From Shigella phage SHBML-50-1: a DNA stretch of 64,000 nucleotides. The stretch lies in the sequence record KX130864; one strand, 5' to 3'. The stretch's first letter is position 1, and every line of letters starts with the position of its first letter. This document shows positions 1,206 to 48,685 of the stretch, piece after piece. Under the pieces are notes generated by a model that saw only the letters and a program-made list of their open reading frames with translations, did no database searches and was not told where the DNA came from. The position numbers and the translations under genes were made by a program.

Positions 1206-3185
1206 ATGACTTTATTATCTCCGGGCATTGAGCTCAAAGAAACTACGGTTCAAAGCACCGTGGTTAATAACTCTACTGGTACAGCAGCTTTGGCCGGTAA
1301 ATTCCAGTGGGGTCCTGCTTTTCAGATTAAACAGGTTACAAATGAAGTAGATTTAGTTAATACTTTTGGTCAACCAACCGCTGAAACTGCTGACTATTTT
1401 ATGTCTGCGATGAATTTCTTGCAGTACGGAAATGACTTACGAGTAGTTCGTGCTGTTGATAGAGATACCGCTAAAAACTCATCTCCGATTGCTGGTAATA
1501 TTGAATACACAATTTCTACCCCAGGTAGTAACTACGCGGTTGGAGATAAAATCACGGTCAAATATGTTTCAGATGATATTGAAACTGAAGGTAAAATTAC
1601 TGAAGTAGACGCAGATGGAAAAATTAAGAAAATTAATATTCCTACTGCAAAAATTATCGCTAAAGCGAAAGAAGTCGGTGAATATCCAGCACTAGGTTCT
1701 AACTGGACTGCAGAAATTTCTTCGTCTTCCTCTGGTTTAGCTGCAGTAATAACTCTTGGAAAAATTATTACTGATTCTGGTATTTTATTAGCTGAAATTG
1801 AAAATGCTGAAGCTGCTATGACAGCGGTTGACTTTCAAGCAAATCTCGAAAAATACGGAATTCCAGGAGTAGTAGCTCTTTATCCAGGCGAATTAGGCGA
1901 TAAAATTGAAATTGAAATCGTATCTAAAGCTGACTATGCAAAAGGAGCTTCTGCATTACTCCCAATTTATCCAGGTGGTGGTACTCGTGCATCTACTGCC
2001 AAGGCAGTGTTTGGATATGGACCGCAGACTGATTCACAGTACGCTATTATAGTTCGTCGCAATGATGCTATTGTTCAAAGCGTTGTTCTTTCAACTAAGC
2101 GTGGTGAAAAAGATATTTACGATAGTAACATTTATATCGATGACTTTTTCGCAAAAGGTGGTTCAGAATATATTTTTGCAACTGCACAAAACTGGCCAGA
2201 AGGCTTCTCTGGAATTTTAACTCTTTCTGGTGGATTATCATCAAATGCTGAAGTTACAGCAGGAGATTTGATGGAAGCTTGGGACTTCTTTGCTGACCGT
2301 GAATCCGTTGATGTTCAACTGTTTATTGCGGGTTCTTGTGCCGGTGAATCTTTAGAAACAGCATCTACTGTCCAAAAACACGTCGTTTCAATTGGGGATG
2401 CTCGCCAGGATTGCTTAGTATTGTGCTCACCACCGCGTGAAACTGTAGTTGGAATTCCTGTAACTCGCGCTGTTGACAACTTAGTCAACTGGAGAACCGC
2501 AACAGGTTCATACACTGATAATAACTTTAATATCAGTTCAACCTATGCAGCAATTGATGGTAACTACAAATATCAGTATGACAAATACAATGATGTCAAT
2601 CGCTGGGTTCCATTAGCAGCTGATATTGCCGGTTTATGTGCAAGAACCGATAACGTTTCTCAGACTTGGATGTCTCCAGCTGGTTATAATCGCGGCCAGA
2701 TTCTTAACGTTATTAAACTTGCTATTGAAACTCGCCAAGCTCAGCGCGACCGTTTATACCAAGAAGCTATCAACCCAGTGACTGGTACAGGTGGTGATGG
2801 TTACGTATTATATGGTGATAAAACAGCTACTTCTGTTCCTTCTCCATTTGATCGTATTAACGTTCGTCGTCTGTTTAATATGTTGAAAACGAATATCGGA
2901 CGTAGTTCAAAATATCGTTTGTTCGAATTAAACAATGCGTTTACTCGTTCATCATTCCGCACAGAAACTGCCCAATACTTACAGGGAATTAAAGCTCTCG
3001 GTGGAATTTATGAATATCGTGTAGTTTGCGATACAACAAATAACACTCCGTCAGTAATTGATAGAAATGAGTTTGTTGCAACATTCTACATCCAACCGGC
3101 GCGCAGTATAAATTATATTACTTTGAATTTCGTCGCAACTGCTACTGGTGCAGATTTCGATGAGTTAACTGGTCTTGCAGGTTAA
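1206..3185 (+). CDS. 18: contractile tail sheath protein gp18
   Basis: 659 aa ORF, T4 gp18-like sequence and size; late promoter box upstream; canonical position after gene 17. Confidence 0.95.
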   Translation: MTLLSPGIELKETTVQSTVVNNSTGTAALAGKFQWGPAFQIKQVTNEVDLVNTFGQPTAETADYFMSAMNFLQYGNDLRVVRAVDRDTAKNSSPIAGNIEYTISTPGSNYAVGDKITVKYVSDDIETEGKITEVDADGKIKKINIPTAKIIAKAKEVGEYPALGSNWTAEISSSSSGLAAVITLGKIITDSGILLAEIENAEAAMTAVDFQANLEKYGIPGVVALYPGELGDKIEIEIVSKADYAKGASALLPIYPGGGTRASTAKAVFGYGPQTDSQYAIIVRRNDAIVQSVVLSTKRGEKDIYDSNIYIDDFFAKGGSEYIFATAQNWPEGFSGILTLSGGLSSNAEVTAGDLMEAWDFFADRESVDVQLFIAGSCAGESLETASTVQKHVVSIGDARQDCLVLCSPPRETVVGIPVTRAVDNLVNWRTATGSYTDNNFNISSTYAAIDGNYKYQYDKYNDVNRWVPLAADIAGLCARTDNVSQTWMSPAGYNRGQILNVIKLAIETRQAQRDRLYQEAINPVTGTGGDGYVLYGDKTATSVPSPFDRINVRRLFNMLKTNIGRSSKYRLFELNNAFTRSSFRTETAQYLQGIKALGGIYEYRVVCDTTNNTPSVIDRNEFVATFYIQPARSINYITLNFVATATGADFDELTGLAG

Positions 3186-3190
3186 TTGAT

Positions 3191-3841
3191 ATGGGGCTTC
3201 GGCCCCTATTCTCGAGGAATCAAGTGATTATTTCTAAATTTATTAAAGTGAAAATTGTACCATCAAATTTTAAACATTATCAATCAAAGGGTTATAAATT
3301 AACACCTCTTGGAGCGGTTAAACATGGATTTAGGTATTATGAAATTGATGTTAAAGTTGAAGACATTAAAGGTAGTACCGCGTATGTAAAATGCCGTTGC
3401 GATAAATGTGGAATTGAATATAACCAACGCATTGGAAGAAACACTGATATTTGTCGTGATTGCCGTCATAAAGATAAAATGCGCAATAATTCATATGATT
3501 CCGCGAATAAAGGAAAAACAGTAGAATGTATGCATGGCGTAAATCATCCAAGATGGAACCCAAATAAATCTGAAATGCGTGAATATATTTCATTGGTATA
3601 TAAAGAAACTCGTAAGCATAAGAAAATTTGGTCAAAATGGCCAAATGCTGATAAAATAGGAGTGTGTGGTACAAAAGGCGCTTACCAACTTGATCATAAG
3701 GTATCTATCAAATACGGTTTTGATAATTTAATTCCTGCTAAAATAATTGGCGGTATTAATAATTTAGAAATAATCACTTGGGAATCTAACCGAGAAAAAT
3801 CAAAAAGAAATAGTGTAGATCTTTGGGATTTACTAGAATGA
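3191..3841 (+). CDS. putative freestanding HNH-family (H-N-N variant) endonuclease with N-terminal Cys4 cluster
   Basis: 216 aa ORF inserted between genes 18 and 19; CRCDKCG...CRDCRHKDK Cys cluster; C-terminal QLDHKVSIKYGF...GGINNLEIITWESNREKSKRN resembles the HNH beta-beta-alpha-metal core; AT-rich relative to flanks; alternative GTG start near 3224 possible. Confidence 0.5.
   Translation: MGLRPLFSRNQVIISKFIKVKIVPSNFKHYQSKGYKLTPLGAVKHGFRYYEIDVKVEDIKGSTAYVKCRCDKCGIEYNQRIGRNTDICRDCRHKDKMRNNSYDSANKGKTVECMHGVNHPRWNPNKSEMREYISLVYKETRKHKKIWSKWPNADKIGVCGTKGAYQLDHKVSIKYGFDNLIPAKIIGGINNLEIITWESNREKSKRNSVDLWDLLE
3193..3206 (+). terminator. GC-rich UUCG-tetraloop hairpin after gene 18 (overlaps the start codon of the inserted ORF)
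   Basis: GGGGC-TTCG-GCCCC. Confidence 0.5.
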
Positions 3842-3848
3842 TTCTAAA

Positions 3849-3866
3849 GGCCTGTTTCGGCAGGCC
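3849..3866 (+). terminator. hairpin after the HNH-like ORF
   Basis: GGCCTG-TTTCGG-CAGGCC. Confidence 0.45.
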
Positions 3867-3867
3867 A

Positions 3868-3875
3868 TATAAATA
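3868..3875 (+). promoter_or_regulatory. late promoter box TATAAATA (distal) upstream of gene 19
   Basis: Exact TATAAATA in the 18/19 spacer, just after hairpin 3849-3866. Confidence 0.55.
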
Positions 3876-3926
3876 CACTATATCCTTAATTCTTTAATTC
3901 TATATGCCCTAGGTTAAACATAGGGA

Positions 3927-3934
3927 TATAAATA
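3927..3934 (+). promoter_or_regulatory. late promoter box TATAAATA (proximal) upstream of gene 19
   Basis: Exact TATAAATA about 15 nt before the gene 19 ATG. Confidence 0.6.
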
Positions 3935-3948
3935 CTACAGAGGCTAAT

Positions 3949-4440
3949 ATGTTTGTAGATGATGTAACACGAGCGTTTGAATCTGGTGATTTTGCTCGAC
4001 CTAACTTATTCCAAGTAGAAATTTCTTATCTTGGACAAAATTTTACGTTTCAATGTAAAGCCACTGCTTTACCAGCTGGTATTGTAGAAAAAATTCCAGT
4101 CGGATTTATGAACCGTAAAATTAACGTAGCAGGCGATCGTACATTCGATGACTGGACTGTTACAGTAATGAACGATGAGGCACATGATGCTCGCCAGAAG
4201 TTTGTTGATTGGCAAAGCATTGCTGCTGGGCAAGGGAACGAAATTACTGGTGGAAAACCAGCAGAGTATAAAAAGAGCGCTGTTGTTCGCCAATATGCTC
4301 GTGATGCTAAAACTGTAACAAAAGAAGTCGAAATTAAAGGCCTGTGGCCTACTAACGTGGGTGAACTTCAATTAGATTGGGATTCAAACAATGAAATCCA
4401 AACCTTTGAAGTAACTCTTGCTCTCGATTATTGGGAATAA
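3949..4440 (+). CDS. 19: tail tube protein gp19
   Basis: 163 aa, T4 gp19-like sequence and size; two late promoter boxes upstream. Confidence 0.95.
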   Translation: MFVDDVTRAFESGDFARPNLFQVEISYLGQNFTFQCKATALPAGIVEKIPVGFMNRKINVAGDRTFDDWTVTVMNDEAHDARQKFVDWQSIAAGQGNEITGGKPAEYKKSAVVRQYARDAKTVTKEVEIKGLWPTNVGELQLDWDSNNEIQTFEVTLALDYWE

Positions 4441-4446
4441 AATGAA

Positions 4447-6097
<1,651 letters not shown>

Positions 6098-6765: not shown

Positions 6766-7403
6766 TGAATGAACCCCAATTACTAATTGAAACTTGGGGT
6801 CAACCTGGCGAAATTATTGATGGCGTACCAATGCTTGAATCTCATGATGGAAAAGACTTAGGTTTAAAACCAGGTTTATACATCGAAGGAATATTCATGC
6901 AAGCGGAAGTCGTCAATAGAAATAAACGTCTTTATCCAAAACGCATATTAGAAAAAGCGGTAAAAGACTATATTAATGAGCAAGTTTTAACTAAACAAGC
7001 TCTCGGAGAATTAAATCATCCTCCACGCGCTAATGTTGACCCGATGCAAGCCGCTATCATTATAGAAGATATGTGGTGGAAAGGAAATGACGTATACGGA
7101 CGAGCTCGTGTTATTGAAGGTGACCATGGTCCTGGAGATAAATTAGCAGCTAATATTCGTGCCGGATGGATTCCAGGAGTTTCTTCTCGTGGATTAGGTT
7201 CATTGACTGACACAAATAAAGGTTATCGTATCGTAAACGAAGGATTCAAATTAACTGTAGGTGTTGATGCAGTATGGGGTCCAAGTGCTCCAGATGCATG
7301 GGTAACTCCTAAGGAAATTACCGAATCACAGACGGCGGAAGCCGATACAAGTGCCGATGACGCCTATATGGCTCTCGCAGAGGCCATGAAAAAAGCGTTA
7401 TAA
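6765..7403 (+). CDS. 21: prohead core scaffold protein and protease gp21
   Basis: 212 aa, T4 gp21-like sequence and size. Confidence 0.95.
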   Translation: MNEPQLLIETWGQPGEIIDGVPMLESHDGKDLGLKPGLYIEGIFMQAEVVNRNKRLYPKRILEKAVKDYINEQVLTKQALGELNHPPRANVDPMQAAIIIEDMWWKGNDVYGRARVIEGDHGPGDKLAANIRAGWIPGVSSRGLGSLTDTNKGYRIVNEGFKLTVGVDAVWGPSAPDAWVTPKEITESQTAEADTSADDAYMALAEAMKKAL

Positions 7404-7406
7404 ATA
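7399..7406 (+). promoter_or_regulatory. late promoter box upstream of gene 22 (overlaps the gene 21 stop)
   Basis: Exact TATAAATA. Confidence 0.6.
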
Positions 7407-7433
7407 TTATTATCTAAACAACAGGACTACAAA

Positions 7434-8243
7434 ATGCTTAAAGAACAACTGATTGCTGAAGCGCAAAAAATTGATGCTTCCGTTGCTCTTGATAGTATTT
7501 TCGAATCAGTTAATATTTCTCCGGAAGCAAAAGAAACTTTCGGCACTGTATTCGAAGCTACCGTCAAGCAGCACGCCGTTAAATTAGCTGAATCTCATAT
7601 CGCTAAAATTGCTGAAAAAGCAGAAGAAGAAGTAGAAAAAAATAAAGAAGAAGCCGAAGAAAAAGCTGAGAAGAAAATCGCTGAGCAAGCTTCTAAATTC
7701 ATCGACCATCTTGCGAAAGAATGGCTCGCTGAAAATAAATTAGCAGTTGATAAAGGTATCAAAGCCGAACTGTTTGAATCCATGCTTGGTGGATTAAAAG
7801 AGCTCTTTGTTGAACACAACGTTGTTGTTCCAGAAGAATCAGTTGATGTTGTAGCTGAAATGGAAGAAGAGCTGCAAGAACATAAAGAAGAATCAGCTCG
7901 TCTGTTCGAAGAACTCAATAAGCGTGACGCATATATCAATTATGTGCAGCGTGAAGTGGCATTGAGCGAAAGTACTAAAGATCTGACTGAGTCTCAAAAA
8001 GAAAAAGTCTCTGCTCTGGTCGAAGGTATGGATTATTCAGATGAATTCTCAAGTAAATTGAGTGCCATCGTAGAAATGGTGAAGAAGTCTAATAAAGATG
8101 AAAGCACTATTACTGAGGGTATAAATACTCCTGATACTGAAGCAGCCGGACTGAATTTCGTCACTGAAGCTGTAGAAGATAAAGCTGCACCTGGTGCAGA
8201 AGATATTGTAAGTGTATATGCGAAAGTCGCATCTCGTTTCTAA
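7434..8243 (+). CDS. 22: prohead core scaffold protein gp22
   Basis: 269 aa, acidic, coiled-coil-rich; T4 gp22-like; late promoter upstream; the gene 23 late promoter sits inside its 3' end. Confidence 0.92.
   Translation: MLKEQLIAEAQKIDASVALDSIFESVNISPEAKETFGTVFEATVKQHAVKLAESHIAKIAEKAEEEVEKNKEEAEEKAEKKIAEQASKFIDHLAKEWLAENKLAVDKGIKAELFESMLGGLKELFVEHNVVVPEESVDVVAEMEEELQEHKEESARLFEELNKRDAYINYVQREVALSESTKDLTESQKEKVSALVEGMDYSDEFSSKLSAIVEMVKKSNKDESTITEGINTPDTEAAGLNFVTEAVEDKAAPGAEDIVSVYAKVASRF
8120..8127 (+). promoter_or_regulatory. gene 23 late promoter (P23) inside the 3' end of gene 22
   Basis: GGGTATAAATACTCCTGATACTG, matching the classical T4 P23 context as I recall it. Confidence 0.75.
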
Positions 8244-45805: not shown

Positions 45806-46034
45806 ATTGTTTTTCCGTTAATACAGTAATATCATAGTAACAATCGGAAGAAGTTTTAACTGTGGAAATTTTATTATCAAAATACTCACGAGTCATTTTA
45901 TGAGTATAGTATTTTTTACCATAAATGGTAATAGGCTGTTCTGGTCCTGGAACTTCTAACTCGCTTGGGTTAGGAAGTGTAAAAAGAACGGCACCAGAAG
46001 TATCTTTAAATCGTAAAATCATATATCCTCGCAA
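45759..46034 (-). CDS. hypothetical protein (nrdA.2-like position)
   Basis: 91 aa ORF. Confidence 0.55.
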
Positions 46035-46042
46035 TAATAAAA

Positions 46043-46903
46043 TTACACCGCCATCTTTCCTTTAATAGGAGGGTGTGATTCATAGTTGTTAAGAACAAAA
46101 TTATGTGGCTTTGCGAATTGACTCAACCAAAATACCTGCGATTCTGTGTCCCATTCATCAAATTCATCTGGAAATTTTAATTGCAATTCGCATAAATCCA
46201 TAGGTTCACGACATAAAATTTCTTTACATTGTTCTACGTGATTCATATAGATATGAGTATTACCACCAGAAAATATCAAATCTCCCGGAATAAGATTACA
46301 CATCTTAGCTACAATATGAACTAACGTAGCATATGATGCAATATTAAATGGAAGACCGAGGAAAACATCTACCGAACGTTGATACCACTGAAGGTCAAGG
46401 TATCCATTACGCACATTAAACTGATAGAACATATGACAAGGCGGTAATGCCATATATTTAAGTTCAGCTGGATTCCACGCAGAAACAATTTGACGCCTAT
46501 CATTTGGCAGTTTTTTAATACGATCAATAACTTCTATAATTTGATCTACACCGCCAAAATCACGCCACTGTTTTCCATAAATTGGACCAAGTTCACCGCT
46601 ATGGTATCCTAAATCTTTTGCTTGATTTTCGTAATTTTCATCCCAGACTGTTTTGCCTTGAATTAATGAATCATGTTGAATTAATCGCAAATCATTGACA
46701 TTTGTGCTTCCTGATAAAAACCATATTAGCTCAGCAATGCATGCATTCCAGGCGAGCTTTTTAGTTGTTACTGCAGGAAAACCTTTGGTTAAATCCCAAC
46801 GCAATTTAGTACCGAACAAAGCAATTGTTCCTGTGCCCGTTCGGTCATCGGTTTCATAGCCATTTTCAAAAATGTCTTTAATTAAATCTTGGTATTGTTT
46901 CAT
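46043..46903 (-). CDS. td: thymidylate synthase (uninterrupted, no intron)
   Basis: 286 aa continuous ORF; catalytic PCH motif ([10 protein letters not shown]); T4 TS size. Confidence 0.95.
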
Positions 46904-46940
46904 TTAGTACCTTATATAAATTATAATACATTTTATGAAG

Positions 46941-47294
46941 CTAAATAATCAACGGTTTAGCATCAAATTTTCTCTCAATTTCAGGCGTGAAATATAATTC
47001 TTTACCGCGTTTGGAAAAGCGACCAATAATATGATAATTATTCTCATCAAACGTGATATTACCAATATCCATAGCTTTCAACCAAATATCGATATTTCTA
47101 TCCAGCTTTATGTCAAAATTCCAATACGGAGAACTATTACCGAAAATACTACAAGCGGATTCAGTGAAACAACTGCTATAAATCTTGTCTTTAGGAACTA
47201 CTAATTGATAGACACCTTTAATAAACTGAGGACCCTGCCACTTTGGCTGTTTCTCATCTTTTTCTAATAGAATAGGGTAATAATTAAAATTCAT
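46941..47294 (-). CDS. hypothetical protein inserted between frd and td
   Basis: 117 aa ORF; KGVYQLVVPKDKIYSS is weakly reminiscent of a GIY-YIG N-terminal motif, but the protein is too short for a full Seg-type enzyme. Confidence 0.5.
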   Translation of the reverse strand: MNFNYYPILLEKDEKQPKWQGPQFIKGVYQLVVPKDKIYSSCFTESACSIFGNSSPYWNFDIKLDRNIDIWLKAMDIGNITFDENNYHIIGRFSKRGKELYFTPEIERKFDAKPLII

Positions 47295-47313
47295 ATTTCC
47301 GCCGCGCGTTATT

Positions 47314-48272
<959 letters not shown>

Positions 48273-48325
48273 TTTTTAAAGCATTGCATAATAGAATTCA
48301 TCATTCATAAACTCAAATACAAAAA

Positions 48326-48685
48326 TTATATTATCTCCCATCGAAAAGGGTCAGGAGCATATCCGATAGAGTTAATCATTTTAACTAAAGTTACCATTCC
48401 TTTGTTAACTGCTTGTGCGATTTCATCAAAAACTTCATCGCTATCATCATAAAGGTCATTAAAAAGTTCTAACACGTTCTTCTGAACTTTTAATTTATGA
48501 CCAACAATCTCGCCTACAGTAAATTCGTTTCCGCCGATTCCAGTGTAAAACGTAATTACACCAGTTAACAGACTTTCGCGAGAATCTAGGTCATGTGATA
48601 AATTAATATAAGCCATCCCGGGTGCAGTTTTAAGTTGGCAACGAATTCTTACTTGGGTAATTCCGGTTACATGAATGTCGGACAT
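48326..48685 (-). CDS. hypothetical protein
   Basis: 119 aa ORF. Confidence 0.55.
   Translation of the reverse strand: MSDIHVTGITQVRIRCQLKTAPGMAYINLSHDLDSRESLLTGVITFYTGIGGNEFTVGEIVGHKLKVQKNVLELFNDLYDDSDEVFDEIAQAVNKGMVTLVKMINSIGYAPDPFRWEII

Follow-up and report, generated by a model that had tools for sequence, protein, structure and literature searches.

What is the small gene that separates the dihydrofolate reductase gene frd from the thymidylate synthase gene td in Shigella phage SHBML-50-1? In the 64,000-nucleotide stretch of this phage analysed here (from record KX130864; hereafter "the window"), the gene order on the minus strand is frd, then td.1, then td, and td.1 is part of the frd-td-nrdA nucleotide-metabolism cluster (Table 1). 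The ORF listing confirmed the reading frame that the original prediction had placed between the two genes. The statement that frd and td overlap in T4 was likewise correct, the overlap being 4 nt (frd 7110-7691, td ends at 7113, in the numbering of the T4 segment). The same arrangement as in the window is found in Escherichia phage JLBYU31 (OK272473.1, Tequatrovirus), which matches it at 100% across 2 kb around td.1. In this Tequatrovirus copy, the genes do not overlap: spacers of 19 nt (frd-td.1) and 37 nt (td.1-td) separate them, unlike the compact junctions of other genera. Two further small ORFs, at 47892-48272 and 48326-48685 on the minus strand, lie upstream of frd and are the equivalents of RB51ncORF236c and RB51ncORF237c; neither has a match in NCBIfam. 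In T4 the matching interval has neither of them and holds frd.1 directly.

Table 1. Features of the frd-td region, in window coordinates.
Feature	Position	Strand	Basis or remark
td.1 (RB32ORF229c family, PHROG 1928), coding sequence, 117 aa, ATG start	46941..47294	-	ORF listing, PHROG match
frd (dihydrofolate reductase), upstream neighbour of td.1	47314..47895	-	TGA stop inside repeat copy 1
td (thymidylate synthase), downstream neighbour of td.1, intronless, 286 aa	46043..46903	-	ATG start inside repeat copy 2
9-bp direct repeat, copy 1, TAAATGAAA, across the frd stop codon	47312..47320	-	Exact match; left edge of the indel relative to T4
9-bp direct repeat, copy 2, TAAATGAAA, across the td start codon	46898..46906	-	Exact match; right edge of the indel relative to T4
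frd-td.1 spacer, 19 nt, AATAACGCGCGGCGGAAAT, with presumed ribosome-binding site	47295..47313	-	Kept in RB51 and T6
td.1-td spacer and last td.1 codons, promoter-like site for td	46904..46952	-	Consensus scan
Site of the 2-bp deletion relative to RB51 and T6	46952..46953	-	DNA alignment, protein comparison

This gene already has entries as td.1, RB32ORF229c and PHROG 1928. Its 117-aa product matches phrog_1928 over the full length (E 3.3e-36, residues 4-111 against positions 2-125 of the 126 in the profile), a family annotated as "unknown function". In GenBank it is named td.1 in T6 (ABI48938.1) and RB32ORF229c in RB32 and RB51, the RB51 record adding the remark "flanked by 9 bp repeat"; in most other records its product is a "hypothetical protein", and literature searches on td.1 and RB32ORF229c returned no paper treating the gene. 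The T6, RB32 and RB51 genes encode proteins with 97-99% amino acid identity to the one described here and share with it the position between frd and td and the flanking 9-bp repeat. The present copy differs from those of T6 and RB51 by a 2-bp deletion, through which the C-terminus ...KPY* becomes ...KPLII* and the protein has 117 instead of 115 aa.

The original prediction offered two explanations for this ORF: a degenerate remnant of a GIY-YIG homing endonuclease of the Seg type that once targeted the frd-td junction, or an unrelated small accessory gene. The first was founded on a segment near the N-terminus, KGVYQLVVPKDKIYSS (residues 26-41), thought to resemble the GIY-YIG signature. The segment is present, but it reads GVY-x8-IYS, with the wrong spacing and the wrong second half. 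Among 43 family members, G27 and Y29 are the only conserved residues of the region, positions 38-40 being variable, and the GVY...IYS motif is a chance look-alike on a conserved beta strand. A loose regular expression matched this ORF alone among the 87 long ORFs of the window (0.25 matches expected in shuffles), a result that carries little weight because the pattern was chosen post hoc and tailored to this very ORF. In the 43-sequence alignment, W19, G91, K95 and G97 are invariant, and Q16, G27, Y29, F93 and F102 nearly so; no Glu, Asp, Asn, His, Cys or Arg is invariant, R92 being found in 29 of 43 sequences. The catalytic residues of the GIY-YIG enzyme I-TevI are R27, E75 and N90, and the conserved catalytic Arg/Glu/Asn of these nucleases have no counterpart in the td.1 family. 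What the family does conserve are the motifs Q-x-K-W, G-x-Y and G-R-F-x-K-x-G...F, all of which are found in the window protein (QPKW at 16-19, GVY at 27-29, GRFSKRG at 91-97 and F102).

Profile searches against GIY-YIG domains, which had been proposed as a check, gave the same answer. In Pfam, the td.1 protein had no match at E <= 10 and its 43 relatives showed nothing consistent, with no GIY-YIG domain (PF01541) among their matches; NCBIfam gave no match for td.1, and a comparison by hhalign of the family profile with the aligned catalytic domains of T4 I-TevI and SegG returned a probability of 0.1%. A sequence-profile search of the PDB yielded spurious matches to dynein and TagH, at E >= 0.01. 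The family is devoid of any known domain and of catalytic-looking invariant residues.

An AlphaFold2 model computed from the 43-sequence alignment (pLDDT 91, pTM 0.84) predicts with high confidence a compact, mostly beta-strand fold with one helix: strands at residues 6-12, 27-34, 62-64, 80-82, 86-96 and 99-104, and a single helix at 68-77. This predicted arrangement does not correspond to the alpha/beta sandwich of GIY-YIG domains, in which helices flank a three-stranded sheet. When the model was searched with Foldseek against BFVD, the matches were uncharacterised members of the td.1 family from T4-like phages and nothing else.

The length and evolution of the family speak in the same direction. 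A profile search that covered 1.84 billion representative proteins exhaustively yielded 39 clusters at 50% identity, all of 95-139 aa save for one 37-aa fragment, each with a single matched stretch and no fusions. There is no longer form among these proteins of which td.1 could be the remainder. The comparison of frd-td junctions across T4-like genomes suggested by the original prediction found the td.1 family conserved there at full length. Relative to the td.1 of the window, those of T6 and AugustSocin carry 8-9 synonymous changes and 1 non-synonymous change, and that of the Mosigvirus Shf125875 carries 27 synonymous and 10 non-synonymous changes (dN/dS 0.058); within Tequatrovirus dN/dS is 0.02-0.04. 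The corresponding value for frd against Shf125875 was left out since an indel in the ungapped comparison made it unreliable. With a dN/dS of 0.02-0.06, strong purifying selection acts on td.1, as on a genuine coding gene, and this is incompatible with decay.

It is true that td.1 shares several outward features with T4 I-TevI and SegA-G. It is a small gene, present in some T-even phages and absent from others, it contains G-[IV]-Y as a superficial tripeptide (within the GVY...IYS string described above), and it adjoins td, a known target of homing endonucleases. The nuclease reading could also draw on the flanking 9-bp repeat and on the genomes of the BASEL phages AugustSocin, TadeuszReichstein and KarlGJung, in which td.1 is labelled "putative homing endonuclease". 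However, no similarity in profile, motif, catalytic residues or fold accompanies these features. These enzymes have a linked DNA-binding domain and total about 200 aa or more; td.1 is half their size and has no such domain, and its position is kept across genera instead of being sporadic. With profile, motif, residues, model, length and dN/dS all against it, the identity of td.1 as a GIY-YIG remnant is effectively refuted, and we regard it as extremely unlikely. Full-length conservation and the lack of any GIY-YIG relationship support instead the second explanation, that of an unrelated small accessory gene. We conclude, with a probability of about 0.85, that the 117-aa ORF is an intact, conserved accessory gene, td.1, and not the remains of a nuclease.

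How, then, did the nuclease label arise? The BASEL paper states that annotation was refined by whole-genome alignments with reference phages, and it discusses putative homing endonucleases in terms of presence and absence. This is a comparative workflow, and the label of td.1 in these genomes probably reflects its presence/absence polymorphism and not a domain; the wording of the paper suggests this, but does not show it. A second label is found in the JLBYU31 record (OK272473.1), where td.1 is called "putative dihydrofolate reductase". That td.1 might be a second, divergent dihydrofolate reductase, or a fragment of one, finds its sole support in this product name and has a vanishingly small probability: the td.1 protein has no match to PF00186 (DHFR_1) or any other Pfam family, and a BLASTP comparison with the neighbouring Frd gave a trivial best match (E 0.11 over 14 residues). 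Dihydrofolate reductase identity is therefore refuted at the sequence level, and the label has most probably been carried over from the adjoining gene. Neither of the two labels has support from sequence or fold.

Where else does the gene occur? Homologues were found by tblastn in 580 phage records, 361 of which, from Tequatrovirus and some Mosigvirus, are at least 90% identical, while the other 219 fall below 60% identity and belong to T4-like phages of Klebsiella, Enterobacter, Citrobacter, Erwinia, Serratia and Salmonella. The gene that immediately follows frd is a homologue in Kanagawavirus, Klebsiella T4-like phages, Roskildevirus, Moonvirus, Winklervirus, Muldoonvirus and Gelderlandvirus. 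Altogether, td.1 homologues fill the slot from dihydrofolate reductase to thymidylate synthase in at least 8 T4-like genera, and they do so in metagenomic contigs too. These homologues are often arrayed as 2-3 tandem paralogues. In many genomes, the second small gene before td is such a paralogue (hhalign probability 99.2%, E 1e-19) and carries the same motifs, QKxW, HGxY and GRFxKxG...F; within the 64-kb window, a search with the family HMM found no paralogue elsewhere. Outside Tequatrovirus, start and stop codons usually overlap at the junctions of the homologues, which argues for co-transcription and translational coupling of td.1 with frd and td.

Divergent members were placed in their contigs as well. 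Of five that were checked, four are flanked by dihydrofolate reductase and thymidylate synthase genes in T4-like contigs. Two of the four share the metagenomic contig SRR28387184_149, where three tandem paralogues of 148, 106 and 95 aa occupy the slot (approximately 3562-4605); the 148-aa gene is counted as a member because of where it lies and because it resembles the Cronus paralogue. The sole family member seen outside the frd-td slot is P0031 (139 aa; SRR22022328_29912, 3001-3420), which sits at the end of its contig with an NMN-transporter gene upstream of it. The td.1 family is small and confined to T4-like phages, and its ancestral place is the frd-td slot.

We then consider the junction itself. 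In an alignment of four phages, the difference from T4 is a clean indel of 414 bp in the present phage and of 416 bp in RB51 and T6. Both of its ends consist of an exact 9-bp repeat, TAAATGAAA, one copy of which is kept in T4. The original prediction implied that the T4 arrangement is the norm, and this turned out to be wrong. A search with the T4 junction returned 513 records, and junction states were scored in a spread sample with 57 informative records: about 4 of the 57 have the contiguous, overlapping T4-type junction, and these are exclusively T4 and phages close to it. The state with the additional 416 bp containing td.1 is the majority in this sample, and a third state has 206 additional bp with an unrelated 68-aa ORF. 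We infer that the overlapping frd/td junction of T4 is a rare and derived state.

Two histories could produce these states. In one, td.1 would have been lost from T4 through a deletion running precisely from one TAAATGAAA repeat to the other, which would have taken with it the promoter-like site before td. In the other, a mobile cassette would have inserted into a T4-like overlapping junction with duplication of a 9-bp target, and T4 would be the ancestral empty site. The exact direct repeats at both ends fit a target duplication equally well, and the 19- and 37-nt spacers around td.1, which set this locus apart from the overlapping junctions elsewhere, would also be in keeping with insertion. 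So would two observations on exchange at this site, namely that other Tequatrovirus phages, as well as unrelated phages, have the different 68-aa ORF, and that identity around td.1 is mosaic between a Mosigvirus and the present phage.

The first of these observations shows that the slot exchanges cassettes, since the 68-aa ORF at the same site is unrelated to td.1; the junction therefore has three states, namely td.1, the 68-aa ORF and empty. The 68-aa ORF is found at the frd-td junction in approximately 135 Tequatrovirus genomes, and its relatives are 79% identical in T4-like phages of Klebsiella, whereas those of the phAPEC8-like (Phapecoctavirus) group reach about 43%. One example is Shigella phage pSs-1, in which the ORF (MSNKLKVKDVPN...) replaces td.1 (segment positions 507-713, equivalent to window 46904-47313). 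As for the second, comparison of the Mosigvirus Shf125875 with window 46900-47900 gave 93-98% nucleotide identity for the ends of frd and the 5' half of td.1, against 61-76% for the centre of frd and about 75% for td; taken together, the 3' end of frd and the 5' half of td.1 reach 96-98%. This mosaic indicates a recombination tract that crosses the genus boundary.

Insertion into an empty junction is nevertheless hard to reconcile with the distribution of the family. Homologues and tandem paralogues sit in the same slot in at least 8 genera and in distant metagenomic T4-like contigs, which makes the presence of td.1 ancestral for the subfamily, and among the sampled records none but T4 and a few phages close to it has the empty junction. 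Moreover, TAAATGAAA is a typical stop-start junction string that occurs 10 times in the 64 kb against 3.5 expected, so a pre-existing repeat is plausible, and the cassette encodes neither a transposase nor an endonuclease. We thus hold the insertion history to be improbable. Because the td.1 family fills the slot across the subfamily and the T4-type overlap is rare, deletion from T4 is the most parsimonious account, and td.1 is likely to have been lost in T4. Deletions between short direct repeats in T4 were classically described for rII. The frd/td junction of T4 resembles them in that exactly one copy of the 9-bp repeat is left; it differs in that the direction of the event is deduced from the distribution of the states.

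The promoter-like site that such a deletion would have taken is a sigma-70-like match before td, TTGATT-18-TATTAT (46920-46952, minus strand), found in a consensus scan and overlapped by a TATAAT at 46920-46925. In the annotation of phage Lutter, the same td.1-td spacer is marked "promoter", and from its sequence and place we infer that the site may serve td. A candidate MotA-box-like ATTTAGCTTCA was also seen by eye upstream, at 46936-46946. The GC-rich frd-td.1 spacer gave no stable RNA structure upon folding (z = +1.7), and Rfam returned nothing but a chance match (E 0.23) on 46000-48400. The td gene that follows is uninterrupted, lacking the T4 intron. Residues 1-230 of its product share about 99% identity with the T4 exons, and residues from about 231 to 272 form a strongly divergent patch. 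A link between td.1 and the td intron was considered and rejected: the intron occurs without td.1 in T4 and together with it in T6, and the phage studied here carries td.1 alone.

What might td.1 do? The family is mildly basic, with a median pI of 8.8, and its members contain many aromatic residues. OB-fold nucleic-acid-binding domains (HIN-200, RPA/Teb1, Cdc13, S1), which are built as a five-stranded barrel with a helix between strands 3 and 4, were considered, and td.1 could tentatively be seen as a putative OB-like binding module for a nucleic acid or a protein partner, a possible assignment in which we place low confidence. Our best guess is that it would be a putative non-catalytic binding protein co-expressed with Frd and Td. 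It may, with low confidence, be dispensable under laboratory conditions, because T4 lives without it. The fact that td.1 adjoins frd and td argues only weakly for a functional link, as synteny is conserved throughout T4-like genomes. The family is nonetheless a candidate for a non-catalytic subunit or regulator of the phage thymidylate/dNTP-synthesis machinery, a speculative role that we consider rather unlikely; in it, td.1 might tether Frd and Td to one another, or link both to DNA or RNA via an OB-like surface.

The main use of these results lies in the correction of annotations: the two product labels, "putative homing endonuclease" and "putative dihydrofolate reductase", and the view of the frd-td junction, at which T4 is atypical. 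Notable as well is that a family of small proteins, sometimes triplicated, is kept specifically between dihydrofolate reductase and thymidylate synthase across T4-like phages. If td.1 does act as a subunit or regulator, its loss from T4 would explain why it is absent from the classical T4 work.
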